A stretch of DNA of 64,000 bases from a virus (lineage: Duplodnaviria; Caudoviricetes): positions 1 to 64,000 of the IMG/VR virus record IMGVR_UViG_3300028048_000055. One strand, 5' to 3'. The notes beneath the pieces are model-generated. The model searched no databases. It had not been told where the DNA came from and was given only the letters and a program-made list of their open reading frames with translations. This document shows, piece by piece, positions 15,642 through 61,791 of this stretch (its first letter is position 1; each line of letters starts with the position of its first letter). The position numbers were made by a program, and so were the translations under genes.

Positions 15642-16388
15642 ATGAATGAAGGTTATCCTGGTGAAAAGAGAGTATTTCAAAAAGTAAGATCTTTTGAAGA
15701 AGAATATCCAGATTTGAAGACTTATGAAAAAGAAGTATTGTCTTGGATAGACAATAAATATGAACGTATAGAATTGGAAACTTTTAAACCAAAAGTATTC
15801 AAGCTATTATCGATGACTGAACTTCTTCCTTGGGTAGAAGAAACTGTAAAGAATGTTATCCAGAATGGATATAATGAACAGACTCCTTCAGATGATTGTT
15901 GGGATGAAATTGTAGAGAAAATTGAAAAAGAACTAAATAAAGATGTCAATGAGTCAACCGACACAGAATATACAGATGAAACTTGGGATAACCAAGTAGA
16001 ATTTGAAACGCAGTTCATCTATAATGAATTGAAGACTTGGTTAAAGTCTTTCAAAGATACTGAGTTTAATGTTTATAAGTATGTTGGTGGAACTGATACT
16101 ATGCCACAACCTTTCATTCGTATTTACGATAGTAAAAACAATGTTATCAGAGAAATCTTATTATATGAAGATGAAGACGATATTTTCTTAAAAATGTGGT
16201 ATGGTTCTAGTATTGCTAAAAAAGAAAATTGTAAGACTTATGAACTTAGCGCAATCAAGAATATTCCTGAATTCTGTAAAGACATTATTATGGATATACG
16301 AAGTAATAAAATCTTATATCCAAAAGTAGAAGAATCAGTTAAGTTACTTAGAAAAGCTGGATATATTGTAGAAAAACTGAAAAAGTAA
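15642..16388 (+). CDS. hypothetical late (possible virion internal) protein
   Basis: TATAAATA upstream; 'ESVKLLRKAGYIVE' motif shared with 51354. Confidence 0.6.
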   Translation: MNEGYPGEKRVFQKVRSFEEEYPDLKTYEKEVLSWIDNKYERIELETFKPKVFKLLSMTELLPWVEETVKNVIQNGYNEQTPSDDCWDEIVEKIEKELNKDVNESTDTEYTDETWDNQVEFETQFIYNELKTWLKSFKDTEFNVYKYVGGTDTMPQPFIRIYDSKNNVIREILLYEDEDDIFLKMWYGSSIAKKENCKTYELSAIKNIPEFCKDIIMDIRSNKILYPKVEESVKLLRKAGYIVEKLKK

Positions 16389-16998: not shown

Positions 16999-18189
16999 AT
17001 GATGCAGATACAAGGCAAATACGGTATTGCTGAAGTTTTTACAGATAATGTGTGTACAGAAGCATATACACAAATTCTTAATATTATGAATCAATGTTGG
17101 GCAAGAAATGCTGATATTAAATTTATGCCAGATATTTCGCCCGGACGTGATGCTTTGGTAGGCACTACCATGAAAGTTACCGATAAGGCAGTTCCAAATT
17201 TAATTGGTCCAGATATTGGATGCGGTATGCTTGTCGCAAAGCTTAAGGACAAGTTTATTGAATTTGGAAAACTTGATAAAGTTATCAAGGAAAAGATTCC
17301 ATCCGGTAAAAGTCATAATGATAAAAAACATCGTTATGCTAAAGAATTTGACGAAGAATTTGAAAAACTTATCGCTAATGTTAAGCGTGAAGAACTTCTG
17401 AGTATTTGTAGCCTTGGGTCGGGCAACCATTTCATTGAATGCGATAAGGATGAAGACGGTGCATTCTATATAGTTATTCATTCCGGTTCTCGTCATTTGG
17501 GTGTTGCTACTTGTGAATATTGGCAAAATCTTGCAATTAAGGATTGTGCTGACTTGACAGCAATTCGAGGTGCTGAAATAGCCAAGTATAAGAACCAAGG
17601 AAAGACGGATGCTGAAATTAAGGAACTTATGAAGGATTATGACCATTTCTCTGTTCCTAAGAATCTTTCTTATTTGACTGGTGAACATATGCAGGGTTAT
17701 CTGCATGATATGGAAATTGTCCAGCAGTTTGCCGTTATGAACCGTGCCGCAATGCTCGATGTTATTGTCAAGGAAATGGGTTTCAAGGTTGTCGAAAAGT
17801 TTGAAACTATTCACAACTATATCGATCTTAAGAATATGATTCTCCGTAAGGGTTCTATTTCTGCACAAGAAGGCGAAAGGGTCATTATTCCTATGAATAT
17901 GAGAGATGGTTCTTTGATTTGTGTCGGTAAGGGAAATCCAGATTGGAATTATTCAGCACCTCATGGAGCAGGTCGTTTAATGACCAGAAGTGATGCTAAG
18001 AACTCAATTTCTATGAAGGAGTATAAAGATGCTATGAAAGGAATTTTCACGTCCTGTGTGTCTTCCGCGACGATTGACGAGTCTCCTATGGCTTATAAGC
18101 CGATGGATGAAATCATAGCAAATATTGAACCTACTTGCACTATCGAAAAGATTATCAAGCCGGTTTATAACTTCAAGGCGGCATTTTAA
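16999..18189 (+). CDS. rtcB: RtcB-family RNA ligase
   Basis: MPD, DIGCG, SLGSGNHFIE, HSGSR, HNY, RKG, IPMNM, SAPHGAGR, DESPMAYK motifs. Confidence 0.95.
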   Translation: MMQIQGKYGIAEVFTDNVCTEAYTQILNIMNQCWARNADIKFMPDISPGRDALVGTTMKVTDKAVPNLIGPDIGCGMLVAKLKDKFIEFGKLDKVIKEKIPSGKSHNDKKHRYAKEFDEEFEKLIANVKREELLSICSLGSGNHFIECDKDEDGAFYIVIHSGSRHLGVATCEYWQNLAIKDCADLTAIRGAEIAKYKNQGKTDAEIKELMKDYDHFSVPKNLSYLTGEHMQGYLHDMEIVQQFAVMNRAAMLDVIVKEMGFKVVEKFETIHNYIDLKNMILRKGSISAQEGERVIIPMNMRDGSLICVGKGNPDWNYSAPHGAGRLMTRSDAKNSISMKEYKDAMKGIFTSCVSSATIDESPMAYKPMDEIIANIEPTCTIEKIIKPVYNFKAAF

Positions 18190-30177: not shown

Positions 30178-31635
30178 TGAACTAACTCCGGCTTAAAAGC
30201 CGGAATCTTCTTTTTCGTTTCTACGACCTACCTTGCCGTTTACCATTGCTGGCTTAACGGTAGAGGATAATGTCTCCACGGAGGCCTGTTCCAGGCACTC
30301 GGTACGTTTAATTGTACCAATAAATTTTACGTTCTTGGCGGCATGGATATCCCTGTCCTCGGCATAACCGCAGGCACACCGAAATATTCTATCTGCAAGA
30401 CTTAATGTATTAAGACATCCACAGGCCGTACAAAGCTTGGTAGTGGGATGTGATTTACTAATCTTGAAAGATTTAGTTCCTTCCATGCTTACCAGTTTCG
30501 CCTTGACCCTGCCGAGATACGAGCACTGTACCTGCCTGCCAAACGAGTTACCACACTTCTTACCGTTTTTCTTACTATGTTTCTTCTTTTTCCATTTAAA
30601 AATCATTTCATCCTGGAAATAGACAGTATTGTAGTTGGCAATAAGATAATGTATCAGCTTGTTCGTGGCATCTACTTTCTTATTGGTAAGGTGTTCGTAT
30701 TCCTTCCTGATCTGGTTACGAAGTTTCCAATAACGCTTTGAATCCTTTTGTTTACGATGTAACTGCTTTTGCAGGTAATTCAGGTATTCGCTTTCTCGCA
30801 CATTGCAGTTGAACTTCTCGCCGTCAGACGTGGTTATGTTGTCCTTGATGCCGAAGTCTAGACCGACTTCTTTGTATAATTTATTATTTTTATAATTTTC
30901 TTTATTTAGACAAACCGAAACATGAATGTATATACCGCTTGCTTTCTTGACAATTCTAGCGTCAGCAAGTTCGTAATTATTCAAGTTTAAAATTTGATTT
31001 AAACCGTACACCTTCAAGTTCTTGAAACCGGGTATAGTAATATGGCTGTTGTCTATAATTTTTACACCGCCGGATAAGATAGGTATAGAATTACACTCGG
31101 ATTTAAATTTCAACATACCTATTTTTATACCTTTCTTCTTAGCTTTTGACAGATTGACTATATCCTGCTTGACGTTTGCAACCATTCCACGATGAAGGTA
31201 AACCGGTAATGTAATATTGTCGTATACCTCGTTTTTGTCCTTATCGAAATGCTTTATGTTCTTGTGTTCAAGATAGTTGTAATCAAATATGTCTATATTC
31301 CGTTCTTCGTTATGTTTAGACAAAGCGATCATGTCGTTACGAATCCATTTTGCCTGCTTGAAGAAAACATTAAATTTCCTGAAAGTTTCCGGTTTGGTCT
31401 GGTGGCAATTAACCTTTAACTCAAATATCCTAATTATTTGGGTTTTTCTACGTTCACGTGTTTCAGCTAAGGATTTCCTTATTTGTTCACGTTCAGTATC
31501 TGTTAATTGTTTTCTTGCCATACATTATATTTATAAAAATTATTTTTAATTTTTGACATATTTACAATTTAGGTCATTTTTATTATATTTAATATGTCTG
31601 CTTGAATTACCACCCTAAAGGGTGGAATCTTGCGC
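30177..31635 (-). mobile_element. IS200/IS605-IS607 superfamily non-autonomous TnpB element
   Basis: higher GC than flanks; right end on - strand CCGGCTTTTAAGCCGG hairpin then AGTTAGTTCAC; related hairpin CCACCCT/AGGGTGG at about 31610; no tnpA. Confidence 0.75.
30193..31521 (-). CDS. tnpB: TnpB RNA-guided endonuclease
   Basis: RuvC-I GLDFGIKD, RuvC-II YFQDE, Zn ribbon CTACG/CACG, RuvC-III DRDIHAAKN. Confidence 0.92.
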   Translation of the reverse strand: MARKQLTDTEREQIRKSLAETRERRKTQIIRIFELKVNCHQTKPETFRKFNVFFKQAKWIRNDMIALSKHNEERNIDIFDYNYLEHKNIKHFDKDKNEVYDNITLPVYLHRGMVANVKQDIVNLSKAKKKGIKIGMLKFKSECNSIPILSGGVKIIDNSHITIPGFKNLKVYGLNQILNLNNYELADARIVKKASGIYIHVSVCLNKENYKNNKLYKEVGLDFGIKDNITTSDGEKFNCNVRESEYLNYLQKQLHRKQKDSKRYWKLRNQIRKEYEHLTNKKVDATNKLIHYLIANYNTVYFQDEMIFKWKKKKHSKKNGKKCGNSFGRQVQCSYLGRVKAKLVSMEGTKSFKISKSHPTTKLCTACGCLNTLSLADRIFRCACGYAEDRDIHAAKNVKFIGTIKRTECLEQASVETLSSTVKPAMVNGKVGRRNEKEDSGF

Positions 31636-42451: not shown

Positions 42452-42480
42452 TTTACAAAACAAGAAAAAATTTCTATATT
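42452..42480 (+). promoter_or_regulatory. sigma70-type promoter of tRNA block 1
   Basis: TTTACA-N17-TATATT. Confidence 0.8.
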
Positions 42481-44460: not shown

Positions 44461-44535
44461 CTCTCCTTCGCCTAGCTGGTCATGGCACTTGCCTTACAAG
44501 CAAGCAAAACCTTGGTTCAAATCCAAGAGGGGAGA
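44461..44535 (+). tRNA. tRNA-Val(TAC)
   Basis: cloverleaf. Confidence 0.88.
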
Positions 44536-44541
44536 TAAAAA

Positions 44542-44660
44542 TATAGCATAGGTAGTTCCTATTACTAAGCGTATAGCTCAACTGGTGGAGCAGTTACCGA
44601 AAGGTAAAAGGTTGTCGGTTCGAATCCGATTGTGCTTGCCATTCGATACTACCCGCTATA
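44542..44660 (+). ncRNA. TCCTAT scaffold copy 2 enclosing an anticodon-less tRNA body (44567-44641, GAAA loop, CCA)
   Basis: TATAGC/GCTATA, GGTAGT/ACTACC. Confidence 0.75.
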
Positions 44661-44670
44661 AGGGTTTAAC

Positions 44671-44739
44671 GGCATAAGACGTTCCTATTTAGCTCATGTG
44701 AGCGTTTGATTGATATTCAAAAGGTTATTACGTCTCGCC
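44671..44739 (+). ncRNA. TCCTAT scaffold copy 3 (mini D arm + Ile GAT anticodon loop)
   Basis: GGC/GCC, AGACGT/ACGTCT; TTTGA-TTGATAT-TCAAA. Confidence 0.75.
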
Positions 44740-44796
44740 AAACTTTTAACAAAAAGAGAACAAACAAAAACATAAATAAACAAAAGAGAAAATAAA

Positions 44797-44862
44797 ATGA
44801 CTTACGTTATGAACACAAATAATACCAACCCTAATAATAACCCTGAGGTTCTACAGGATTAG
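44797..44862 (+). CDS. attenuator leader peptide 2 MTYVMNTNNTNPNNNPEVLQD
   Basis: 7 Asn, 3 Thr, 2 Pro; downstream tRNAs Asn/Pro/Thr. Confidence 0.88.
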   Translation: MTYVMNTNNTNPNNNPEVLQD

Positions 44863-44894
44863 TTTTGTTTCATAACTTGATGAATTTTTAAACT

Positions 44895-44934
44895 GGATCC
44901 TGTAAGATATTAGAACTTACAGGATTTCTTTTTT
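44895..44934 (+). terminator. attenuator terminator 2
   Basis: GGATCCTGTAAG/CTTACAGGATTT plus T tract. Confidence 0.88.
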
Positions 44935-44936
44935 AT

Positions 44937-45021
44937 TCTAGTGTACCCGAGTTGGTAGCAGGGGGAGGACTGTTAATCCTTTGGCGAAAGCCCGTCGCAC
45001 GTCCGAGTCGTGCCACTAGAG
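44937..45021 (+). tRNA. tRNA-Asn(GTT), long variable arm
   Basis: cloverleaf with GGC-GAAA-GCC variable arm, G73. Confidence 0.85.
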
Positions 45022-45030
45022 CTAAATTAT

Positions 45031-45114
45031 TGGTAGGTACCCGAGTGGTAGCAGGGGGCGGCCTGTTAAGCCGTTGGCGAAAGCCCGTCGTTGGTTCGAA
45101 TCCAACGTGGACAG
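45031..45114 (+). tRNA. tRNA-Asn(GTT)-like, long variable arm, mismatched acceptor stem
   Basis: TGGTAGG vs GTGGACA has 3 mismatches. Confidence 0.65.
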
Positions 45115-45123
45115 CTAAAATAT

Positions 45124-45203
45124 TGTCTTGTGGCGGAATTGGTAAACGCACTGCACTGTTAATGCAGCACTTCGGTTTGTAGGTTCGATGCCTACCAAGA
45201 CAG
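45124..45203 (+). tRNA. tRNA-Asn(GTT), Leu-like D arm, 11-nt variable region
   Basis: cloverleaf. Confidence 0.88.
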
Positions 45204-45213
45204 TTAGATAAAA

Positions 45214-45286
45214 CAGAATGTAGCTCAGATGGCAGAGCGCACCGTTCGGGGCGGTGAGGCCGGAGGATCGTAACCTCTCATTCTGA
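45214..45286 (+). tRNA. tRNA-Pro(CGG)
   Basis: cloverleaf, T loop ATCGTAA. Confidence 0.9.
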
Positions 45287-45294
45287 TAAAATAA

Positions 45295-45367
45295 CAGGGT
45301 GTAGGCTAGTTGGTTAGTCGCATGGCCTGGGACCATGTTCACGCAAGTTCGAATCTTGCCACCCTGA
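45295..45367 (+). tRNA. tRNA-Pro(TGG) with C33
   Basis: loop CCTGGGA. Confidence 0.85.
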
Positions 45368-45403
45368 TACAACCGAGCACTCTGACTGTATTATAAATAT
45401 AAT

Positions 45404-46039
45404 ATGAATGAATATATATGTAAATTTTGCGGTAAGATTTGTAAAAACATAAATTCTTTAAAAAATCATGAAAGATTATGTAAATTAAATCCTAATAGAC
45501 AAATATCGCCATTTGTAAAATATAATGCAGAGCATGAAACAAGTTGGAATAAAGGGCTTACAAAAGAAAATGATGAAAGAGTTAAGCAAATGGCTGAAAC
45601 TATGAGTCAAAAAATAAGAGCAGGCCTAATACATAACTATGATCATCAAAAAGTATGGACAGAAGAACGTAGAAAAGCACAATCTGAAAGGAAAAAGAAA
45701 TTTTATGAAGAACACCCAGAAAAGCATCCTAATAGCTTAGTAGCTGGTGCACTTAATAAAATGACATATCCTGAAAAATTAGTTACTGAATATTTAAAAG
45801 AACATAATATAACAGCAGAACATAATTGGTATTTTAAAACAGAAAAATTTACAAGATATATAGATTTTTATATAGATGAATTAAAATTATTTATTGAAGT
45901 TGATGGAGAATATTGGCACAAAGATAAACAAAAAGATATTGATAAAGATAATGATGCATTAATGTATGGTTATAAAACATTAAGGTTAAAACCAAAAACA
46001 GTTATAACACAATTAAATGAATTTTTTAATATGGCATAG
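45404..46039 (+). CDS. Zn-finger + DUF559/Vsr-like endonuclease
   Basis: CKFCG..H.RLC, WNKGLTKE, DFY..IEVDGEYWH. Confidence 0.85.
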   Translation: MNEYICKFCGKICKNINSLKNHERLCKLNPNRQISPFVKYNAEHETSWNKGLTKENDERVKQMAETMSQKIRAGLIHNYDHQKVWTEERRKAQSERKKKFYEEHPEKHPNSLVAGALNKMTYPEKLVTEYLKEHNITAEHNWYFKTEKFTRYIDFYIDELKLFIEVDGEYWHKDKQKDIDKDNDALMYGYKTLRLKPKTVITQLNEFFNMA

Positions 46040-46098
46040 GAAGTTCCTATTAGCTCAATGAGCATTTGATTGTTAATCAAAAGGTTTTACTTCCCGCC
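46033..46098 (+). ncRNA. TCCTAT scaffold copy 4 (mini D arm + Asn GTT anticodon loop)
   Basis: GGC/GCC, GGAAGT/ACTTCC; TTTGA-TTGTTAA-TCAAA. Confidence 0.75.
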
Positions 46099-46109
46099 TA
46101 AATTTTTTA

Positions 46110-46180
46110 GCTTCTATAATTCAATGGTAAAATGCCGGTTTAGTAGTCCGGATTTCTTGGTTCGAGTCCAGGTGGAAGCG
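46110..46180 (+). tRNA. tRNA-Thr(AGT)
   Basis: G1-C72/C2-G71, loop TT-AGT-AG. Confidence 0.75.
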
Positions 46181-46222
46181 TAAAAATCTAAACTTCTGCT
46201 CTACCGAATTTATAAATATAAT

Positions 46223-46882
46223 ATGGAAGAAAATTATATTTGTAAATTTTGTGGGAAACAATGTAAAAATGCTAATTCTTTACGAAATCACGAAAGATTT
46301 TGTAAAGAAAACCCTGAACACCAAGAATCTCCATGGATAAAATTTAATCATGAACGAGGCGCTTGGAATAAAGGATTAACTAAAGATACGGATGAACGTA
46401 TTAAAAAACGTAGCGAAACATTTTCAAAACGCTATAAAGGCACTGAAGAAGGGAAACGAATTTTTAGTCATCCGCAATCTGAAGAACATAAACAAAAAAT
46501 GCGTAAAATTGCAACAGAAAGACATTGGGGCGGTTGGCATACCTCAAAATCTATTGAATTTAATGGTATAAATTTAGATTCTAGTTATGAAGTTGAAGTA
46601 GCAAATCAACTTAATGAAAATAAAATAAAATGGGAAAGACCTACTTATTTTCTATGGGAAGATACTAATGGAGTAAAACATCGTTATTATCCTGATTTTT
46701 ATCTTCCAGAATATAATGTATATCTTGACCCAAAAAATGATTATTTAATAAATAATAAATCTAAAAAATTTGGTATTACTGATGTTGAAAAAATAATGAA
46801 AGTTGAACAACAAAATGGAATACGTATAATTATTTTAGATAAAGATAATTTAACATGGGAAAACATTAAAGAAAAGATTTAA
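46223..46882 (+). CDS. Zn-finger + PD-(D/E)XK (TnsA-like) endonuclease
   Basis: DSSYE, YYPDFYLPEYNVYLDPK; TATAAATA upstream. Confidence 0.85.
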   Translation: MEENYICKFCGKQCKNANSLRNHERFCKENPEHQESPWIKFNHERGAWNKGLTKDTDERIKKRSETFSKRYKGTEEGKRIFSHPQSEEHKQKMRKIATERHWGGWHTSKSIEFNGINLDSSYEVEVANQLNENKIKWERPTYFLWEDTNGVKHRYYPDFYLPEYNVYLDPKNDYLINNKSKKFGITDVEKIMKVEQQNGIRIIILDKDNLTWENIKEKI

Positions 46883-46914
46883 GTTAGTCGGGAGTTCGAA
46901 TCTCTCACCAGGCG
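46883..46914 (+). pseudogene. orphan tRNA 3' half (T arm + acceptor strand ACCAGGCG)
   Basis: GGGAG-TTCGAAT-CTCTC directly after the endonuclease stop. Confidence 0.6.
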
Positions 46915-46981
46915 TATCAATGAGAAAGGGTTGACATTTGTCGACCTTTTTTCTATATTAAAAGAAAAAGGAAATATAATA

Positions 46982-47902
46982 ATGTTTAAGAAAATTATCG
47001 ATAAAATTGAACAAGCAACCATCAATTATACGATTAAGCATAGGAAGCCATTTACTTATTACTTGAATAGACCTGACGGAAAACGTTGTAAAACCCGTCA
47101 TACATCCTTTAATGCACAGTCAAAGTATTTCTATGACGATAAAGGTCGTGAAATTGCATGGATATATTCTAATAACGGGAAAATAACTAGTTGTACTACT
47201 TACGAATATAAAAATAACGAGAGTAATGAACAAAGTAAGCGTTGGAAGCGTGAATTTAAAATTGTTGATAATAAGCGTGTTTTAATCGAAGATTCGTTAG
47301 TTGTTTACAATGATGATGGTACATATACTGTTACAGAAAACGGTATTACGACAACAAAACATATTATTAAGCCTACGGTTATTAAAGATAATAATGGCAA
47401 TATTATTGAAGAAAAATCATTTGACCCTGATGAAAATGAAGATTTTCATGCTGTAATGTCATATGACGAACAAAATAGATTAATTCGTAAAGTAACAACA
47501 TATACAGTCAATAATGTGATTAAAAACAAATATATTGATGAAAATGCATATGATGCTGAAGGCCATATTATAAAACATACATGGTATATGAATACTGATT
47601 ATGGTACTGATGAAAGTACTACTATTGACTATAATGTATATGACAAGAAAAATCGTTTAGTTAAATGCTGTTCACATACATCTTATAATAGAGCTTGTTT
47701 GGGTAAGCATAAGTATATAGATACTACATATTATAAGTATGATGAAAAAAATAATGCTGAAATAACTTTACATGAATATACTAATTGGTTATCTAAGTGT
47801 TATGATAAAACTGTAACATTGCCAAATGGTTATACTGTTGAATCCCATTGGGATCTTCCGGTTTGGCCTGATAAGTTGCGTCGATTCTTTGGAGCATATT
47901 AA
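46982..47902 (+). CDS. YD-repeat-like protein
   Basis: repeated YD.xG/N motifs. Confidence 0.6.
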   Translation: MFKKIIDKIEQATINYTIKHRKPFTYYLNRPDGKRCKTRHTSFNAQSKYFYDDKGREIAWIYSNNGKITSCTTYEYKNNESNEQSKRWKREFKIVDNKRVLIEDSLVVYNDDGTYTVTENGITTTKHIIKPTVIKDNNGNIIEEKSFDPDENEDFHAVMSYDEQNRLIRKVTTYTVNNVIKNKYIDENAYDAEGHIIKHTWYMNTDYGTDESTTIDYNVYDKKNRLVKCCSHTSYNRACLGKHKYIDTTYYKYDEKNNAEITLHEYTNWLSKCYDKTVTLPNGYTVESHWDLPVWPDKLRRFFGAY

Positions 47903-47904
47903 TC

Positions 47905-48507
47905 ATGACAGAATTACTGATTATCGCAAGTGTAATTACGGTTACAGTAATTCTTAGTTATTATTTCGGTATTCAGCTTTTATATAAGTATAGAAAAGGA
48001 ATAACGAAGATTCTTGGACTTATTACATTTATTTCTGTTATCGGATATGGAATGTATAAAGATTATCAAGACGAAAAAATTCTTGAAAATGTACTTACTG
48101 AAGTAACAACTGAAATTAATAGCACAGATAGAAGTATGTTAACTGATGATGGTTTTCATGAATTTGTGGAACATTTTGTTATGAAGAAAAACGACGTAAA
48201 TTTTAAAGTCGTTCCACAAATTGATACAGCAATTTTGAAAATCAATAAAGTCTACCAGAATGTACTTAATGACCCTGATTATAAGATTCTTATAACGAGC
48301 GCAAATGATTCGAAGTCACATTCGAAAAATTCTGCACATTATCGTGGTGAAGCAGTAGATATTCGTATCAAGAATATTGATCGACATTCGAAGAATGAAA
48401 TTATATCTACAGTTAAAGAAATTCTTGGAGATAGATTTTTCATATTGCATGAAGATCGAGGAAAACCCAATGAACATTTACATATTCAATTAAAAAATAA
48501 GGGTTGA
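47905..48507 (+). CDS. membrane-anchored peptidase M15/DD-peptidase-fold protein
   Basis: 2 TM; SAHYRGEAVDI...HLHIQ zinc motif. Confidence 0.75.
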   Translation: MTELLIIASVITVTVILSYYFGIQLLYKYRKGITKILGLITFISVIGYGMYKDYQDEKILENVLTEVTTEINSTDRSMLTDDGFHEFVEHFVMKKNDVNFKVVPQIDTAILKINKVYQNVLNDPDYKILITSANDSKSHSKNSAHYRGEAVDIRIKNIDRHSKNEIISTVKEILGDRFFILHEDRGKPNEHLHIQLKNKG

Positions 48508-48539
48508 CAAAGAGAATATAATTTACTATATTTAACATC

Positions 48540-48608
48540 GTTAAAGCAAAGAATGTTCCTATTAATATCAAATTATTTTTAGCAGATGACAATACATTCC
48601 GCTTTAAC
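48540..48608 (+). ncRNA. TCCTAT scaffold copy 5 (loop TT-TAG-CA)
   Basis: GTTAAAGC/GCTTTAAC, GAATGT/ACATTC; starts just after promoter 48504-48532. Confidence 0.75.
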
Positions 48609-48612
48609 AATT

Positions 48613-48734
48613 CGACGAGTAGCTCAATTGGTAGAGCACATGTTTTTTATACCAACCGCTACTTGGCAAACTTGGTTCCTATTAATTATGGAATAGGTCC
48701 ATGGGGGTTGTAGGTTCGAGTCCTACCTTCCCGG
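48613..48734 (+). ncRNA. tRNA-like RNA with a circularly permuted TCCTAT scaffold in place of the anticodon loop
   Basis: D and T arms intact; T-ACCAAC-C-GCTA-CT-TGGC-AAA-CTTGGT-TCCTATT inside the CATG/CATG stem. Confidence 0.65.
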
Positions 48735-48756
48735 TTATAAAAAATTTATCGCTGAA

Positions 48757-48831
48757 TGCTCTATCGTCTAGTGGTTTAGGACAGCCGGGGGTTAAACCGG
48801 TGAACAGTGGGTTCGAATCCCCTTAGAGGTA
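48757..48831 (+). pseudogene. aberrant Glu-like tRNA body, 8-nt anticodon loop
   Basis: GCCGG-GGGTTAAA-CCGGT; terminal acceptor mismatches. Confidence 0.5.
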
Positions 48832-48941
48832 ACTAAATATTGATTGCAGTCAATATATTCTTCAGCGAGAGGTATACTGATTGACGCCTGCAAACGTTGT
48901 GATGTATACCGGCGCTATTAAAAATATTTTAAAAAGAGGGG

Positions 48942-48970
48942 TTGACAAACCAAAAACTTTTTACTATATT
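48942..48970 (+). promoter_or_regulatory. sigma70-type promoter of tRNA block 3
   Basis: TTGACA-N17-TATATT. Confidence 0.8.
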
Positions 48971-49032
48971 TTAATCAAACAAAAAACAAAAACAGGAAAA
49001 AAATTTTTATATATAATATAAAAGGTAACAAA

Positions 49033-49140
49033 ATGAACAAGAACTTTAACATTGAATTCATCGCGATTGCAGCAGAACGTATTGCAGAATTTGCAGAACG
49101 TGTTTTTGCGATTGACAATTCAGTGCACAGGTTCAAGTAA
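49033..49140 (+). CDS. attenuator leader peptide 3 MNKNFNIEFIAIAAERIAEFAERVFAIDNSVHRFK
   Basis: AAGGT SD; A6 E4 F5 I5 V2. Confidence 0.9.
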   Translation: MNKNFNIEFIAIAAERIAEFAERVFAIDNSVHRFK

Positions 49141-49170
49141 ACGAAATTACTTAAGGTATGAAGAATTTAC

Positions 49171-49205
49171 GGTTCCTGTGTATAACACAGGGACCTTAAT
49201 TTTTT
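49171..49205 (+). terminator. attenuator terminator 3
   Basis: GGTTCCTGTG/CACAGGGACC plus T-rich tail. Confidence 0.85.
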
Positions 49206-49215
49206 ATATAACTTT

Positions 49216-49289
49216 GGGACTTTAGAATACGTTAGCTAGTTCACCGCCCTTTCACGGCGGAGAATCGGGGGCAGCACCCGGAAGTCCTA
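49216..49289 (+). tRNA. tRNA-Glu(TTC)
   Basis: cloverleaf, T loop GGCAGCA. Confidence 0.85.
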
Positions 49290-49297
49290 CTAATTTT

Positions 49298-49368
49298 GGG
49301 CTTATGATGTAATGGTAGCATAATAGCTTTGCAAGCTATTTGTTAGGTTTCGAATACCTATAGGTCCA
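49298..49368 (+). tRNA. tRNA-Ala(TGC)
   Basis: cloverleaf, G3.U70. Confidence 0.88.
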
Positions 49369-49377
49369 CTATATTAT

Positions 49378-49451
49378 GCCGCTCAATCCGAATCCAGTGA
49401 TCGGACGGGACTGAAAATCCCAGAAGCTCAGGGCAGCACTGAGGGGCGGCA
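49378..49451 (+). tRNA. tRNA-Phe(GAA)
   Basis: cloverleaf, atypical D and T loops. Confidence 0.78.
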
Positions 49452-49463
49452 CGAAAACATTAT

Positions 49464-49537
49464 GGGCCAGTAGCCTAGTAGGAAAGGCACCGCACCTGCA
49501 ATGCGGAGTTCATGGGTTCGATCCCCATCTGTGTCCA
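49464..49537 (+). tRNA. tRNA-Ala(TGC), C33, bulged acceptor
   Basis: cloverleaf, G3.U70. Confidence 0.78.
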
Positions 49538-49547
49538 CTAAATTTTT

Positions 49548-49620
49548 GGGCTCGCATGTACCCTGGAGGCGAGCTGGCCTTGCAAGCCGGCTGAGATGGG
49601 TTCGACACCCACCGGGTCCA
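49548..49620 (+). tRNA. tRNA-Ala(TGC), weak D arm
   Basis: G3.U70; anticodon and T arms clear. Confidence 0.75.
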
Positions 49621-49677
49621 TGAAAATAAATTTACATTAAGGAGTTAAAATGGGAACTGATATGTAAAAATAAATAT

Positions 49678-49750
49678 GGGCTTATGGTGTAATTGGTAAC
49701 ATGTCGGCTTTGCAAGCCGAAGAGTCCGGAATCGTCCTCCGGTAGGTCCA
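49678..49750 (+). tRNA. tRNA-Ala(TGC)
   Basis: G3.U70, atypical T loop. Confidence 0.8.
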
Positions 49751-49755
49751 CTAAT

Positions 49756-49830
49756 GGGGGCAAAGGTTACTTTTCGCAACTTTTGCACAAAGAGTTCCTA
49801 ACTATATTGGTTCAATTCCAATAGCCTCCA
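49756..49830 (+). ncRNA. Ala-type acceptor/T-arm minihelix fused to a permuted TCCTA scaffold
   Basis: GGGGGC/GCCTCC-A with G3.U70; T-ACTTTT-C-GCAA-CTT-TTGC-ACA-AAGAGT-TCCTAA. Confidence 0.65.
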
Positions 49831-49840
49831 CTAAATTTAT

Positions 49841-49915
49841 GGGGCTGTAGCTCAGTTTTGGTGGAGCGGAAGACTGAAGATCTTCGCGTCGCAGGTTCGA
49901 TTCCTGCCGGGGGCA
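49841..49915 (+). tRNA. tRNA-Phe(GAA)-like, mismatched acceptor stem
   Basis: GGGGCTG vs CGGGGGC (three G.G pairs). Confidence 0.65.
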
Positions 49916-49922
49916 CTAATAT

Positions 49923-49997
49923 GGTTCTATCGTCTACGGAAGGCTAGGATGTAACCCTCTCAAGGTTATGAATTTGGTTCGACCCCAAATGGAACTA
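49923..49997 (+). tRNA. tRNA-Glu(CTC)
   Basis: cloverleaf. Confidence 0.88.
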
Positions 49998-50007
49998 TTA
50001 AAAATAT

Positions 50008-50081
50008 GGGACTTTAGAATATGCTGGTTAGTTCGCTGCCCTTTCAAGGCGGAAAGTCCGGATCATCGCCGGAAAGTCCTA
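50008..50081 (+). tRNA. tRNA-Glu(TTC)
   Basis: cloverleaf, paralog of 49216. Confidence 0.85.
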
Positions 50082-50090
50082 CTAAAATAT

Positions 50091-50164
50091 ATCCGATTAA
50101 CTCAGTGGTTCAGAGTGACGCTTTGACTAAGCGTAAGTCATAGGTTCGAATCCTTTATTGGGTA
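50091..50164 (+). tRNA. tRNA-Val(GAC)
   Basis: cloverleaf. Confidence 0.9.
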
Positions 50165-50168
50165 CTAT

Positions 50169-50245
50169 CCATAGGCATAACGATTGGTTTTCCGTTTGCC
50201 ACTCTGATAAGGTGGAGACTGTAGGTTCAAATCCTACCCTATGGA
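50169..50245 (+). tRNA. tRNA-Ile(GAT)
   Basis: cloverleaf. Confidence 0.85.
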
Positions 50246-50254
50246 CTAAAATAT

Positions 50255-50331
50255 CGGCAACTATCTCCTCGCTCTGATAAGGCGTTGAAAGAGTAATTGG
50301 TTACATGTAGGTTCAATTCCTATGTTGCCGA
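50255..50331 (+). tRNA. D-arm-less tRNA-Ile(GAT)-like RNA with expanded variable region
   Basis: perfect acceptor CGGCAAC/GTTGCCG and T arm; CTGATAA loop. Confidence 0.6.
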
Positions 50332-50395
50332 CTAAATTAAATTTTAATATTTAAAAGGATTGACATTAGTCAATCCTTTTTCTATATTATAGTAT

Positions 50396-51247
50396 ATGGG
50401 AAGAATTTTTAATAAAATGTATATTGTGTCTGGTGCGGTTAAACCTACTGATATATTGGACTATTATCGTTTTCAAACAAAGAAGATGTTAGATGATATT
50501 CCTTATGGTTATACTCATCAGTTATTTGATGAAGCCATTGAAGTTGATTCTACTGGAAAGCATATTGAATATGATAAATTCCACTGTGATAATTATTGGA
50601 CCACATCAGATGAAACACAGCTTAAAGATTTAAATTGTCATCGAGTTGCAAAGATTAACGGTGTTTGGATGACACTTGATATTGATCCGTTTGAAGACGA
50701 TGTAGTTGATTACCTTGAAGGAAATGGCTATTATCAGAAACTTGGTGAATATGGTTCAGGCTGGTTTGATAAAAATCATAGACCAGAATTTAAACAAGCA
50801 ATTTTTACGAGAATTCATCAGTCATTAAAATTAGAATGGGATTTTAAACATAATTGTTATGCTGGTATTGTTCCAAATATGAAAAAAGATGAACTTACAA
50901 TTTACGCTGGTGATCGCCCTTACAATTATAAAAAACAAATTGGTAATATTAAGGTTGACGGTAAAAAAGTAATTGTAAAAGTTAATGACGACATTTATGA
51001 ATTTGAAAAAGAAACTGATCAAGGCTTTATTGATTTCGTAAAACTTTGTCTTGATGCAAAAAATAAAGTTGTCTTTGGTCGTGAAACGGGTGAAACTGAA
51101 TGGGATAAGTCAGAATGGTCAGACCGTAGGATTATGACAGAAGCACGAATGAAAGCAAGGAATGTAACTCTCGATGAATTAACTAAAGATGAGATTACAT
51201 GGAAGCAAGAAGATTTTAACAAACTTTTTAATGCATATAATGAATGA
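50396..51247 (+). CDS. hypothetical protein
   Basis: 283 aa ORF after promoter. Confidence 0.7.
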   Translation: MGRIFNKMYIVSGAVKPTDILDYYRFQTKKMLDDIPYGYTHQLFDEAIEVDSTGKHIEYDKFHCDNYWTTSDETQLKDLNCHRVAKINGVWMTLDIDPFEDDVVDYLEGNGYYQKLGEYGSGWFDKNHRPEFKQAIFTRIHQSLKLEWDFKHNCYAGIVPNMKKDELTIYAGDRPYNYKKQIGNIKVDGKKVIVKVNDDIYEFEKETDQGFIDFVKLCLDAKNKVVFGRETGETEWDKSEWSDRRIMTEARMKARNVTLDELTKDEITWKQEDFNKLFNAYNE

Positions 51248-51353
51248 GTTATTTCTTGGTGAAATAGACGCCACAGTTTAAGTAAAAGAGATTAAGTAAT
51301 AAAAATAAGGATTGACTAATGTCAATCCTTATTTAAATTTTTATAATAATTTA

Positions 51354-51848
51354 TTAATTTCCTTCTATAGAATTACAAAAGCTATTAACGAAATTTGTTG
51401 CATAATCTTTTACTTTTGCTTCAAATTCTTGACTATCTGTATCTGTTAATAACTCACCGTCTTCATCATATTCTAACAGATCGTCGATTAAACCAGCACC
51501 ATTAAGTTCAAAATTATCTATATTTGCAAGGCGTAATAATGTTACGCGCTCACGTGGACTAAGGGTTTCTTTATTTAATGCTTTTTGCATTATTCGTATA
51601 TCAGCATCCCTATCTAAATAACACAACCCACCATATGTTATATCATCAGGACCATAATTAATAAAACCTATTACTTGTTTAATTAATTCATTTCTGTCTG
51701 ATGTTACCGCCTTGACATATGCCCATTCTGGTCTTTCATGTGCACGATCGCCAGATATTTCATAAAACATATATGTTGGACTATTATTTTCTTTAATCAG
51801 CTTATAGCCAGCAGATTTAAGAGTTTTTATAGCTTCATTTAAATTCAT
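51354..51848 (-). CDS. hypothetical late protein
   Basis: TATAAATA and AAGGAG upstream on - strand; EAIKTLKSAGY motif. Confidence 0.7.
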   Translation of the reverse strand: MNLNEAIKTLKSAGYKLIKENNSPTYMFYEISGDRAHERPEWAYVKAVTSDRNELIKQVIGFINYGPDDITYGGLCYLDRDADIRIMQKALNKETLSPRERVTLLRLANIDNFELNGAGLIDDLLEYDEDGELLTDTDSQEFEAKVKDYATNFVNSFCNSIEGN

Positions 51849-51901
51849 TTGATGTTCTCCTTAAATTATATATTATTTATAAAAAAAATTATTTTAGGGG
51901 G

Positions 51902-51930
51902 TTTACAAGAGTTAAATAATTTACTATATT
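51902..51930 (+). promoter_or_regulatory. sigma70-type promoter of tRNA block 4
   Basis: TTTACA-N17-TATATT. Confidence 0.8.
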
Positions 51931-51951
51931 TAACAACGTAAATAAAACAAG

Positions 51952-52071
51952 AATAGCAAAAGCGGTTCCTATAACCAGAGGAATAGCTTAGTTGGTTAGA
52001 GCAACGCAGCAATGCGGAGGCCGTCGGTTCGAGTCCGATTTCCCCTACCATCAAGTTTACTGCTCGCTATT
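51952..52071 (+). ncRNA. TCCTAT scaffold copy 6 enclosing an anticodon-less tRNA body (51977-52050, GCAA loop, CCA)
   Basis: AATAGC/GCTATT, AGCGGT/ACTGCT. Confidence 0.75.
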
Positions 52072-52121
52072 TTTACAAAAACAGGAAAAAATTTTTTATA
52101 TATAATATAAAGGTTAAGAAA

Positions 52122-52223: not shown

Positions 52224-52250
52224 TATTAACTATATAAAGAGTTTATAAAG

Positions 52251-52283
52251 ATGATTCCTGTGTAAAAACGGGAATCATTTTTT
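52251..52283 (+). terminator. attenuator terminator 4
   Basis: ATGATTCCTG/CGGGAATCAT plus T tract. Confidence 0.88.
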
Positions 52284-52365: not shown

Positions 52366-52430
52366 AATAGCATAAGAAGTTCCTATTGAAAAATACAGAC
52401 TGCAAATCCGTTAATATACTTCTCGCTATT
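52366..52430 (+). ncRNA. TCCTAT scaffold copy 7 (Cys GCA anticodon loop)
   Basis: AATAGC/GCTATT, AGAAGT/ACTTCT; ACAGA-CTGCAAA-TCCGT. Confidence 0.75.
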
Positions 52431-53887: not shown

Positions 53888-54607
53888 ATGAATTACTTAG
53901 AATTAAATGATAAAGGTAAGCTCGGAAGTGATGAGCAAAAATTGGCCGACTATTTTGGAGTCGGTCATTATACTACATTTTATAAAAAGCATTTTTTACA
54001 AAATAAAATAAAACTCACTAAGGATGATTTTATTGCAGGCGTAATTCCAGTAATGTTTTGCGCTATGAAAAAACTTAACATTGATTATAAGCATGATGAT
54101 TATCCTGAACAGCTACAAAAATATCTTCATCGTAGAATTTGGGAATCGACTCTTGGTCGTATAAAAACTAGTGTCTTTAATGATTATCTATTTGGACCTG
54201 TTTTTATTAAACCAAAAGATAAATTAAAAAAGTTTACTGGTTTTGTTTTAAATTCAAGAGATGATTGGCTTCTTACTGAAGGCGCAGGCGATAGCACGAA
54301 AATTATCTGTTCAAAACCGGTAAAATGGGTTACAGAATATCGTATTCCTGTAATTAATGGCGTCGCAAGAGATTATTGTCATTATTTTGGAAATCCAGGT
54401 ATATTTGTAGATAAGGCTGTAATTCAAAATATGATAGGTGATTGGAAAGATTCTCCAAAAGCATATTGCTTGGATGTTGGAGTCTTAGATACTGGAGAAA
54501 CTGCATTAATAGAAGTTAATGATGCATTTAGCTGCGGTAGTTACTCAATGAGTGCTGAAACCTATGGTGATTTACTGACAACAAGATGGAATGAGTTAAA
54601 AGGTTGA
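53888..54607 (+). CDS. ATP-grasp (R2K/DUF4343-like) protein
   Basis: DYPEQL, FIKP..K.FTG, EYR, LDVG..LIEVND. Confidence 0.8.
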   Translation: MNYLELNDKGKLGSDEQKLADYFGVGHYTTFYKKHFLQNKIKLTKDDFIAGVIPVMFCAMKKLNIDYKHDDYPEQLQKYLHRRIWESTLGRIKTSVFNDYLFGPVFIKPKDKLKKFTGFVLNSRDDWLLTEGAGDSTKIICSKPVKWVTEYRIPVINGVARDYCHYFGNPGIFVDKAVIQNMIGDWKDSPKAYCLDVGVLDTGETALIEVNDAFSCGSYSMSAETYGDLLTTRWNELKG

Positions 54608-55408: not shown

Positions 55409-55852
55409 ATGAGAAGACTATTTATTATTAGAAAAGATTTACATCTTACAGGCGGTAAACTAGCCGCCATGATAGGACATTGTGCAGAATGTTATTGGAT
55501 GAACTTAATTAAATCTGCCAATCGACCGTTTAATGACGGTCCAGGTACATTAGTATCTTTTGTCATCGACGATGATGTTATGCAAAATTATATTCAAGGT
55601 ATTTTCACTAAGACCATTTGTGAAGCAAAGAACCTTAATCATTTGATGAAGGTTGTTGATATTGCTAAAAAACTTGGTCTTGTTGAAGGTACTGATTACG
55701 GTTTTATCGATGATGTATGTAAGACAGAACTTACTCCAGAATTTACCGATGAAAATGGTGTTGACCGTTGTCGTGTAGGAATCTGGTTTAAACCGTTGTC
55801 GGATGAAATCAGTCATAAGCTTAGTAAGAAATATCAATTATACAAGGGTTGA
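55409..55852 (+). CDS. peptidyl-tRNA hydrolase 2 (Pth2)-like protein
   Basis: IIRKDL...GKLAAMIGH, TKTIC, IDD.C.TE motifs. Confidence 0.85.
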   Translation: MRRLFIIRKDLHLTGGKLAAMIGHCAECYWMNLIKSANRPFNDGPGTLVSFVIDDDVMQNYIQGIFTKTICEAKNLNHLMKVVDIAKKLGLVEGTDYGFIDDVCKTELTPEFTDENGVDRCRVGIWFKPLSDEISHKLSKKYQLYKG

Positions 55853-58267: not shown

Positions 58268-58489
58268 ATGACTAACTTTGAAATGTGAAAGGAATCGCTC
58301 ACTGCAGAAGAGTGGGCAAATAAATTTGTAGAACTGGATTATTGTCCAAAATGTCCAGCCTATAGTTTTTGTAGAGATTGTGATATATTGAATCCAACAA
58401 AGTTAGATGGAACAGTCAATACAGAAGAATGTAATAATACTTGTAGAAAGAGATTTCTTACTTGGGCAAATAAAGATGCACAATGTTAA
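58268..58489 (+). CDS. Cys-rich small protein with in-frame TGA at codon 7
   Basis: MTNFEM*KESLTAEEWANKF...CPKCPAYSFC...CRKRFLTWAN. Confidence 0.5.
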
Positions 58490-58799
58490 ACATGCATATG
58501 TATATTGTAATGATAAGCTTGCGGGTCATTTGTTAAGAAACCGCAAGCATTATGTTTTTATATACGATAAAGATTATGTTGGTCCATCTATTGCCATAAA
58601 TTTTCCTAAATCAACTAGATACTATTCTAGTCCGTATTTATTTCCGTATTTTTATGGATTGTTGCCAGAAGGTGAAAATAAAGAATTCTATTGCAAAATA
58701 TTTCACCTTAATCCAGATGATAATTTTGAAATCCTGACAAATTTAGCATGGCATGAAACAATTGGTCCTGTTACTGTAAGACCTTTCAAAAACGGTTGA
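58476..58799 (+). CDS. stand-alone HipA N-terminal domain (HipS-like) protein
   Basis: AG.L...YVFIYD..Y, LFPYFYGLLPEG, D.F.IL, ETIGPVTV. Confidence 0.85.
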   Translation: MHNVKHAYVYCNDKLAGHLLRNRKHYVFIYDKDYVGPSIAINFPKSTRYYSSPYLFPYFYGLLPEGENKEFYCKIFHLNPDDNFEILTNLAWHETIGPVTVRPFKNG

Positions 58800-61613: not shown

Positions 61614-61708
61614 TGTAGCATAGGATGTTCCTATTAATGGAAGATAGGCCATCAGGCCTTGATTCGGTTCAAATCCGAAAGCCGAAAGGCAAATTACATC
61701 CCGCTATA
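61614..61708 (+). ncRNA. TCCTAT scaffold copy 8 (T arm plus two hairpins)
   Basis: TGTAGC/GCTATA, GGATGT/ACATCC; TTCGG-TTCAAAT-CCGAA. Confidence 0.75.
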
Positions 61709-61720
61709 AGAAATTAAAAA

Positions 61721-61791
61721 ATGGCATAAGAAGTTCCTATTTCGCCCGTTAGGGCATCCGACTTGAAATCAGACTAATTACTTCTCGCTAT
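61721..61791 (+). ncRNA. TCCTAT scaffold copy 9 (hairpin + Ser TGA anticodon loop)
   Basis: ATGGC/GCTAT, AGAAGT/ACTTCT; TCCGA-CTTGAAA-TCAGA. Confidence 0.75.

Follow-up and report, generated by a model that had tools for sequence, protein, structure and literature searches.

The usual reading of transfer RNA (tRNA) genes in phages is that they supplement codons or provide nuclease-resistant replacements. Here we describe non-decoding tRNA-shaped RNAs of a huge uncultured phage that are under clear selection, encoded in the first 64 kb (hereafter the window; 32% G+C) of the 165-kb virus record IMGVR_UViG_3300028048_000055, for which CheckV estimates a completeness of ~40%. Two genes, m1 and m2 (Table 1), specify tRNA bodies in which a short helix closed by a four-base cap replaces the anticodon arm, and in which the CCA end is written into the gene. 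Based on 13 distinct sequences of this kind (ten m2-type and three m1-type) from at least 15 contigs, m1 and m2 are very probably selected, non-decoding tRNA mimics. If they act as bait for tRNA-end enzymes, they would represent an RNA-based counter-defence against a form of immunity for which, according to a recent statement (PMC12851939), no viral answer was known.

The mimics belong to the broad, known kind of tRNA-like non-coding RNAs; the design that combines a sealed arm with a hard-wired CCA was not found in print. A literature search gave no description of phage-encoded, anticodon-less, tetraloop-capped, CCA-ended tRNA bodies, although the supplements of PMC6784885 and PMC4201824, which lay outside the search, may hold relevant sequences. 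Like a canonical elongator tRNA (RF00005), the mimics have acceptor, D and T arms, a variable loop of 5 nucleotides (nt), and the elbow and core nucleotides. They differ from it in having no 7-nt loop, U33 or anticodon, in having a tetraloop-closed arm of 14-16 nt, and in an encoded CCA, which the real tRNAs of this phage lack. The RNAC and RNAD species of phage T4, which lie in its tRNA cluster, have tRNA-like ends and measure about 120-140 nt, are likewise small stable RNAs encoded with phage tRNA genes, as are the tRNA-like stable RNAs of phage T5. However, RNAC and RNAD are larger, and a GNRA-capped anticodon arm is not described for them; blastn with the m1 and m2 regions as queries matched ordinary tRNA genes only among 50,697 phage records, a collection that does not include close relatives. 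The available text of PMC9697503 refers to the stable RNAs of the T4 tRNA cluster as being "of yet unknown functions".

YrlA and Yrn1, which are Y RNAs of the bacterial and phage type, are also non-decoding; in them a conserved helix adjoins a tRNA-like domain. According to the accessible part of Chen et al. (2014, PMC4201824), Yrn1 of D. radiodurans has a 5-base-pair (bp) "anticodon" stem with a 6-nt loop, and YrlA of M. smegmatis is cleaved by RNase P and receives CCA. As described in the same portion of that paper, the acceptor position of YrlA is a closed stem-loop and the ends exit from the other side, whereas the mimics have an open acceptor and a closed anticodon arm. A gene for Ro60/Rsr (TROVE, PF05731) was found in none of five records, which include two complete genomes and one that is 98% complete, and the 5' Ro60-binding motif GNCGAAN0-1G, as given in the part of PMC4201824 available, has no match in 44480-44720 or 51900-52120. 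With no TROVE gene in these records, no Ro60-binding motif near the mimics and a topology opposite to that of YrlA, identification as Y RNAs was rejected. The tRNA-like domain of transfer-messenger RNA (tmRNA) is another non-decoding structure with an acceptor stem, a T arm and a CCA end. According to the abstracts consulted, tmRNA carries G3·U70, is alanylated and has an mRNA part; in contrast, G3·U70 occurs in none of the 13 mimics, and ARAGORN finds no tmRNA in the window.

Both m1 and m2 match the Rfam tRNA model end to end, with scores (Table 1) above the gathering score of 29, and the positions and anatomy that an initial annotation had given for two anticodon-less, GNRA-capped tRNA bodies hold, including their short, closed arms. 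The acceptor strands of m1 are AAGCGTA and TGTGCTT, its D arm is present, and its T arm is GTCGG-TTCGAAT-CCGAT; m2 pairs AGAGGAA with TTCCCCT, leaving an A3·C70 mismatch. The discriminator base, N73, is G in m1 and A in m2. Where a tRNA has an anticodon arm of 17 nt, m1 has 16 nt with five Watson-Crick pairs and a G·A on top, and m2 has 14 nt with an A·G and four Watson-Crick pairs. In the Rfam alignments the anticodon loop is reduced from the normal 7 positions to 6 (m1) or 4 (m2), and U33 and a readable triplet are absent. ARAGORN lists m1 as "tRNA-???", giving it an anticodon of 2 nt, and misses m2. In an Rfam scan of the whole window, no family but tRNA attained its own gathering score at m1, at m2 or elsewhere, and permissive Rfam searches of both module stretches added just a chance 19.2-bit plastid motif. 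Single-sequence minimum free energy (MFE) folding gave z values of -0.35 for m1 and +0.18 for m2 and did not recover the cloverleaf.

Each mimic is nested in a copy of an RNA scaffold, as the initial annotation had stated. The scaffold has the form ATAGC-(3-nt bulge)-5 bp-TTCCTAT-N4-(mimic)-N5-9-TA-5 bp'-C-GCTAT around both m1 and m2. Seven of the 13 plus-strand TTCCTAT sites in the window pass a strict test for this structure, compared to 23 of 5000 random positions; this test replaced a lax one, which 142 of 300 random sites had passed. By eye, the sites at 44682 and 46044 can be added as two further copies, in which the outer helix has 3 bp. Both helices covary among the m2 modules, the outer one as ATAGC:GCTAT versus ACAGC:GCTGT and the inner one as AGCGG:CTGCT, AGCGG:CCGCT or AGCAG:CTGCT. 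A promoter-like box lies upstream of the m2 scaffold (Table 1), and boxes of the same kind are found at 42452-42480 and in relatives; a terminator-like hairpin follows m2 at 52247-52282. Because m2 sits between the box and the hairpin, all transcripts from this box would include m2 if it is a promoter, irrespective of the outcome at the attenuator that the initial annotation places downstream of m2. At 51966-51983, the scaffold TTCCTAT could also pair at 6 of 7 bases with the 5' acceptor strand of m2 (AGAGGAA) across a 4-nt spacer, forming a hairpin that would compete with the acceptor stem. We treat this alternative as a coincidence, because it is lost in one m2 variant (L032) and in m1.

The other scaffold copies contain short AT-rich inserts or "lower halves" of tRNAs. 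The latter, at 44671-44739, 46030-46105, 52366-52430 and 61721-61790, are the mirror image of the mimics: they comprise a short D-stem hairpin, an anticodon arm whose loop has the normal 7 nt (anticodons GAT, GTT, GCA and TGA, read by eye), or both, and the acceptor and T arms are absent. Two more inserts have a hairpin and a T-arm-like element. One, in the complete phage G002 (L074:10819-10890), combines TTATC-TTCG-GATAA with AAGG-TTCAAAT-CCTT; the other, in the window scaffold copy at 61615-61710, combines GCC-GAAA-GGC with TTCGG-TTCAAAT-CCGAA.

Relatives of m1 and m2 were retrieved from IMG/VR and a metagenome collection with a pattern comprising the scaffold motif, a D arm and a T arm, in which the D-to-T gap was left open at 18-28 nt so that short and canonical arms could both match. 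The metagenome scan identified 20 loci: nine homologues of m1 or m2, two UUCG-capped tRNA-like genes without CCA, and nine ordinary tRNAs with a chance upstream match. All matches with the canonical gap of 26 are without the scaffold 3' half, and all matches in scaffold context have gaps of 22-25. Two loci, L009 and L020, fail the strict scaffold test, although their flanks are plainly homologous. Carriers of homologues include complete phages of 415-424 kb. Normal anticodon loops in related phages would have counted against the reading of the initial annotation; none of the 12 further distinct homologues has one, and a 7-nt loop is absent from all 13 mimic variants.

The two types have fixed positions in the arrays. 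An m1-type gene always follows tRNA-Val(TAC), and its three homologues share the flanks of the m1 scaffold; L023 is identical to the window m1, while L030 and L031 have the arms TCGGGA-GCAA-TCTCGG and TCGGCC-TTAT-GGTCGG, respectively. An m2-type gene, in the window and as nine further distinct homologues, always heads an Asp-Asp-(Arg)-Lys-Lys-Gly-Gly-His-Gly tRNA block. Two other searches for relatives, one with the protein of the open reading frame (ORF) upstream of m2 and one with a pattern on the m1 D arm, gave only two 15-residue matches and one unrelated tRNA-Met, respectively. The UUCG-capped genes (L015:6466-6528 and L021:3361-3423, both on the minus strand) are a third type of anticodon-less tRNA-like RNA, with D and T arms, CCAC-TTCG-GTGG in place of the anticodon arm, an AU-rich acceptor and no CCA; GTTCCTAT lies 4 nt upstream. 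An odd tRNA-like gene also occurs in the Ala/Glu block of relatives (L081:4070-4145, L085:9466-9541 and L019:7954-8026), for which ARAGORN reports a 2-nt "anticodon" (ga) and in which the arm region is one base short.

In a cloverleaf alignment of the 13 mimics, 97.1% of cells hold standard pairs and 12 of 22 pairs are altered on both sides. With a mean column identity of 84% the mimics are closely related, so these counts partly repeat shared ancestry and overstate the number of independent events. None of 500 shuffled controls reached the same level of covariation, and sliding the pairing partners by 1-3 columns lowers pairing to 29-52%. Changes on both sides affect 6 of 7 acceptor pairs and 5 of 6 pairs of the substitute anticodon stem. 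The tertiary 15:48 pair covaries as well, being G:C in 11 sequences and A:U in two and thus matched in all 13. U8, A14, G53, T54, T55, C56, A58, the A1:U72 pair and CCA are invariant, and the variable region is 4-5 nt throughout. Twelve of the 13 mimics are capped by GCAA or GAAA, and L031 by TTAT, on stems of seven different sequences, compared to a background of 104 GNRA caps among the 3177 hairpins of this genome that have 5 bp and a 4-nt loop (3.3%).

Leaving aside the arm and the variable loop, the window m2 shares 98% identity with its copy in a 415-kb phage, yet the arms of the two have neither sequence nor length in common (ACGCA-GCAA-TGCGG versus TTCACC-GCAA-GGTGAA). Judging from these comparisons, what is preserved is a closed, capped helix of roughly natural arm length and not the sequence of the arm. 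The sequences thus support selection on the closed hairpin and the encoded CCA as well as on the tRNA fold; the covariation and the retention of CCA and a closed arm in 13 variants bear out the initial interpretation of selection as opposed to decay.

The encoded CCA separates the mimics from the conventional tRNAs, as was also claimed at the outset. We located the T arm and acceptor stem in all 44 tRNA-like genes of the window and read the bases past N73: CCA follows in two, both of them mimics, while the rest continue with CTA (20), TAA (10), TTA (5) or other bases (7). A tRNA-shaped model has 96 distinct matches in the window array and in those of six relatives (G002-G007); of these, all six mimics have CCA ends, as do one tRNA-Thr gene with an insert and one truncated alignment, which is an artefact. 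Because CCA is missing from the genes of the real tRNAs, and a CCA-adding enzyme is encoded in 4 of the 5 records of the clade searched, these tRNAs evidently receive CCA after transcription, and the mimics would be transcribed with the tail already in place. Across 43136-63228, nearly every ordinary tRNA gene is followed by an N73-(C/T)TA(A)AA trailer, which resembles a common 3' processing signal.

Known anticodon-independent identity elements are not kept consistently in the mimics. The 3:70 pair is G:C in four, A:U in two, U:A in one and A·C in six, and so never the G3·U70 of alanine acceptors; N73 is A in eight, T in four and G in one. Unlike a histidine-type acceptor, the mimics never have C73 (0/13), and the 14 modules have T or C, never G, at position -1; unlike class II tRNAs (Ser, Leu, bacterial Tyr), none of the 13 has a long variable arm. 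The leucine set of E. coli, A73 together with A15:U48 in the identity rules given in the available portion of PMC9976931, occurs in one of 13. Since no such identity set is consistently retained and the discriminator varies among near-identical relatives, the mimics probably stay uncharged. A phage-encoded synthetase of the Ser/Thr/Pro/His/Gly type was rejected as an explanation, as no class IIa synthetase core was found in the six records searched, and tRNA-primed reverse transcription was rejected because reverse transcriptase (PF00078) is likewise absent from six records.

The scaffold motif also occurs in a second context. Among 12 oversized tRNA genes (104-125 nt; positions noted for those of 114-125 nt in Table 1) of the window and its relatives, 11 have an anticodon-arm insert of ~40-70 nt made up of the scaffold motif, here in hairpin order (TA-helix-C-...-helix-TTCCTAT). 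When the insert is removed by eye, a canonical 7-nt loop results in three cases (Thr TGT, Ile TAT and Glu TTC), and in the first two it lies between positions 29 and 30. Exon 2 would begin 2-4 nt past TTCCTAT, with the splice points read by eye, and A1 of the mimic lies 4 nt past TTCCTAT in all 14 modules, a spacing imposed by the search pattern. The oversized gene of the window is chimera-like, its 5' and 3' acceptor strands (CGACGAG and CTTCCCG) being unpaired. Because their removal restores canonical loops, these inserts look like real tRNA introns of an undescribed short kind, in phages that encode RtcB and Rnl1; their kinship with the mimic scaffold would point to an unrecognised bacteriophage pathway for cutting and sealing RNA. 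Archaeal-type splicing (of bulge-helix-bulge introns) was rejected, as no splicing endonuclease of the EndA family (PF01974) was found in five records at E <= 1. A blastn search of a tRNA-Thr gene with such an insert against the phage records gave one weak, unrelated match, and single-sequence MFE folds were of no help with the structure of the splice sites.

Present/absent short inserts in tRNA genes are also known from Lak megaphages, huge gut phages with large tRNA sets. The accessible text of Devoto et al. (2019, PMC6784885) describes "enigmatic" short conserved inserts that vary between alleles, one of which "itself may encode a tRNA". However, a search of Lak-A1 with the mimic model gave nothing above 61 bits, the level of ordinary tRNAs, and a TTCCTAT-type scaffold was not seen in two tRNA-rich stretches of that genome. 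As the mimic is missing from the Lak-A1 record and the scaffold from the two stretches searched, a link to these phages was rejected.

Table 1. Positions of the mimics, their scaffold and associated features; coordinates refer to the window unless a relative is named.
Feature	Position	Strand	Details
m1, tRNA-shaped RNA gene without anticodon loop	44567..44641	+	End G73-CCA; Rfam tRNA 44.4 bits; model R1 82.5 bits
m1 anticodon-arm substitute	44593..44608	+	GTTACC-GAAA-GGTAAA; 16 nt; cap GAAA at 44599-44602
Genomic CCA of m1	44639..44641	+	Bases after N73
Scaffold copy with m1	44543..44659	+	ATAGC / ATA bulge / GGTAG / TTCCTAT / TACT / m1 / TTCGATA / CTACC / C / GCTAT; strict test passed
Next scaffold copy after m1	44671..44739	+	Short D-stem hairpin, anticodon arm with 7-nt loop TTGATAT (anticodon GAT), variable-loop-like AGGTT; without acceptor or T arm
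m2, tRNA-shaped RNA gene without anticodon loop	51977..52050	+	End A73-CCA; Rfam tRNA 47.8 bits; model R1 87 bits
m2 anticodon-arm substitute	52004..52017	+	ACGCA-GCAA-TGCGG; 14 nt; cap GCAA at 52009-52012
Genomic CCA of m2	52048..52050	+	Bases after N73
Scaffold copy with m2	51953..52070	+	ATAGC / AAA / AGCGG / TTCCTAT / AACC / m2 / TCAAGTTTA / CTGCT / C / GCTAT, then T run; strict test passed
Sigma-70-like box	51902..51930	+	TTTACA-17-TATATT; 10/12 consensus matches; ~22 nt upstream of m2 scaffold; consensus match only
Oversized tRNA genes	48613-48737; L076:1310-1425; L080:14984-15099; L074:10688-10804 and 15807-15920
Oversized tRNA genes, continued	L078:755-994; L081:2936-3295; L031:526-640 and 4298-4414
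PTH2-family peptidyl-tRNA hydrolase gene	55409..55852	+	Pfam PF01981, 32.2 bits versus cut-off 23; inside tRNA array
RtcB RNA ligase gene	16999..18189	+	tblastn 48-49% identity to phage "tRNA splicing ligase" genes; Pfam RtcB

We tentatively propose that m1 and m2 are selected, non-decoding tRNA look-alikes that serve as bait or as competitors for factors acting on uncharged tRNA bodies and their tails; a job as acceptor-end and elbow decoy, taken by itself, is held just as tentatively, and heads the readings considered here. The initial annotation had put forward elbow/CCA decoys or RNase P processing signals. In this model, the mimic would be freed from the scaffold as a stable, tRNA-sized RNA of ~75 nt. 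It would retain the full L-shaped body, with acceptor, D arm, T arm, elbow and 15:48 pair, while the sealed anticodon loop would make codon reading impossible. Given its probable uncharged state, it would display an abundant free CCA end and elbow. The chief targets would be immune effectors of the host that are active on the acceptor end, which they modify or cut. According to the available parts of the respective reports, toxSAS enzymes pyrophosphorylate the tRNA CCA end (10.1101/2021.04.30.441581, 10.1101/2024.07.05.602228), nucleotidyltransferases of the MenT/AbiEii type extend it (PMC10435456), and Cas12a3, a tail-cutting nuclease, grips the T arm and CCA tail and continues to cut the tail when the tRNA loops are removed. 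The mimics could thus form part of a phage tRNA-protection kit with RtcB, Rnl1, the CCA-adding enzyme and PTH2.

An extended version of this model is rather unlikely. In it, the scaffold would be recognised by a phage RNA-cutting activity that also excises the tRNA inserts, with sealing by RtcB or Rnl1, and that releases trimmed, uncharged mimics which swamp CCA-tail effectors (Cas12a3-type, toxSAS, MenT), while the sister scaffolds with bare anticodon arms would do likewise for anticodon nucleases. If true, such a cut-and-seal decoy system would provide the "yet unknown means of resistance" against immunity that targets tRNA tails.

Several points weigh against the decoy proposal. A decoy for catalytic toxins competes merely as an alternative substrate, so very high abundance would be needed. 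Because a minihelix would do as pure CCA-end bait and yet the full body is kept, a reader of the whole L shape would be implied. Cutting and ligation of the scaffold, if that is what happens, could also mean that the CCA is never exposed as a free end. Both modules are also dispensable: the complete 424-kb phage G002 lacks m2, having the same promoter-like box and leader with nothing between them, and m1, found in three lineages only, is missing from the complete G003, from the near-complete G004 and from G005. Moreover, retrieval demanded the scaffold motif at a fixed spacing, so that the sample covers homologues of this build and leaves out diverged or differently built ones.

A cis-acting role is somewhat less probable than the decoy. 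Here the tRNA shape would serve only to bring in RNase P and enzymes that trim the 3' end, or would protect the scaffold RNA, or the operon transcript at its 5' end, against nucleases, with no job in trans. The scaffold is also found with short non-tRNA inserts and may thus be the functional part, and m2 is at the extreme 5' end of the predicted transcript. For RNase Z, CCA acts as an anti-determinant, so the 3' junction of the mimics would be handled differently from that of their neighbours. However, the CCA would be unnecessary for processing, because the neighbouring tRNAs without it must mature too, and the attenuator operon in G002 exists without the m2 module. RNase P requires only the acceptor and T arms, whereas the D arm, the 15:48 pair and a helix of anticodon-arm length are all conserved in the mimics. 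Protection from nucleases by a tRNA fold has been proposed for YrlA in the consulted portion of PMC4201824, consistent with the shielding variant. Less likely still, the mimics could be cargo of an intron-like mobile RNA element that persists selfishly: an endonuclease would recognise the scaffold, RtcB or Rnl1 would seal the ends, and the mimic would be excised, possibly circularised, as a by-product. The clean presence or absence of the m2 module in a conserved leader and the restriction of m1 to three lineages fit this scheme, as do the shared motif in the oversized tRNA genes, the canonical loops regained in the three cases resolved by eye, the distances from TTCCTAT to exon 2 and to mimic A1 (the latter set by the search pattern), and the presence of RtcB, Rnl1 and free-standing DUF559 and HNH endonuclease genes among the tRNAs. 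On the other hand, the PF01974 endonuclease is missing from all five records, splice sites were placed by eye at a varying distance from the motif, and selfishness leaves unexplained the selection for CCA, elbow nucleotides and a GNRA cap in 13 variants.

The features that favour a toxin decoy, namely a CCA end that is never charged, an elbow left intact and an arm of natural length, would equally suit a decoy for sensors of uncharged tRNA, an idea raised in the initial annotation. Such a mimic would bind where RelA-type stringent factors read CCA, or would bind T-box leaders, could pair with neither codon nor specifier, and would blunt the host starvation response during infection. We consider this improbable: both RelA-type sensors and T-boxes depend strongly on anticodon pairing for their affinity, and T-box antiterminators read N73, which varies among close relatives of the mimics. 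A charged carrier is, if anything, even less credible. An anticodon-blind synthetase would aminoacylate the mimic, which would donate its amino acid off the ribosome or be a substrate of the PTH2 encoded in the same array. The conserved CCA end and acceptor stem, with an invariant A1:U72, allow for charging, and E. coli LeuRS charges tRNA-Leu without an anticodon arm, according to the part of PMC9976931 available. The inconsistent identity elements and variable discriminator speak against it, as does the missing class IIa core; PTH2 lies 3.4 kb downstream of m2, with seven tRNA genes in between, and the complete G003 has m2 while its best PTH2 match, at 18.7 bits, is below the cut-off and outside the array stretches examined. 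Last in order, decaying pseudo-tRNAs that chanced to lose loop nucleotides are effectively excluded. The m1 arm is just 1 nt under normal length, and the arrays contain numerous duplicated tRNAs; however, none of the 13 variants has lost the closed arm, the CCA or the tertiary nucleotides, their changes are compensatory, their GNRA caps far exceed the background frequency, and CCA is limited to the mimics among the tRNA-like genes of the window. The pseudogene explanation was therefore rejected on conservation and covariation.

The relatives of the window's phage are 411-424 kb phages, two of them with terminal repeats. The tRNA array spans 43 to 63 kb of the window, where ARAGORN predicts 38 tRNA genes and Rfam gives 34 matches; the merged list contains the 44 tRNA-like genes considered above. 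Small ORFs are scattered through the array, and several of them are the free-standing endonucleases of the DUF559 and HNH types. RtcB is encoded in 5 of the 6 records of the clade, and a T4 Rnl1-type ligase likewise in 5 of 6.

Three other genes of the window were observed. Immediately past the last tRNA of the Asp-to-Gly block is a gene for an R2K-clade ATP-grasp protein (53888-54607, plus strand; 128 bits). A 130-amino-acid ORF within the tRNA array (58407-58799, plus strand) has as its only match the HipA N-terminal "Couple_hipA" domain (56.7 bits), and a kinase domain is absent. A TnpB-like ORF of 442 amino acids (30193-31521, minus strand) contains OrfB_IS605 and Cas12f1-like TNB domains and lies on the strand opposite to nearly all other large ORFs.

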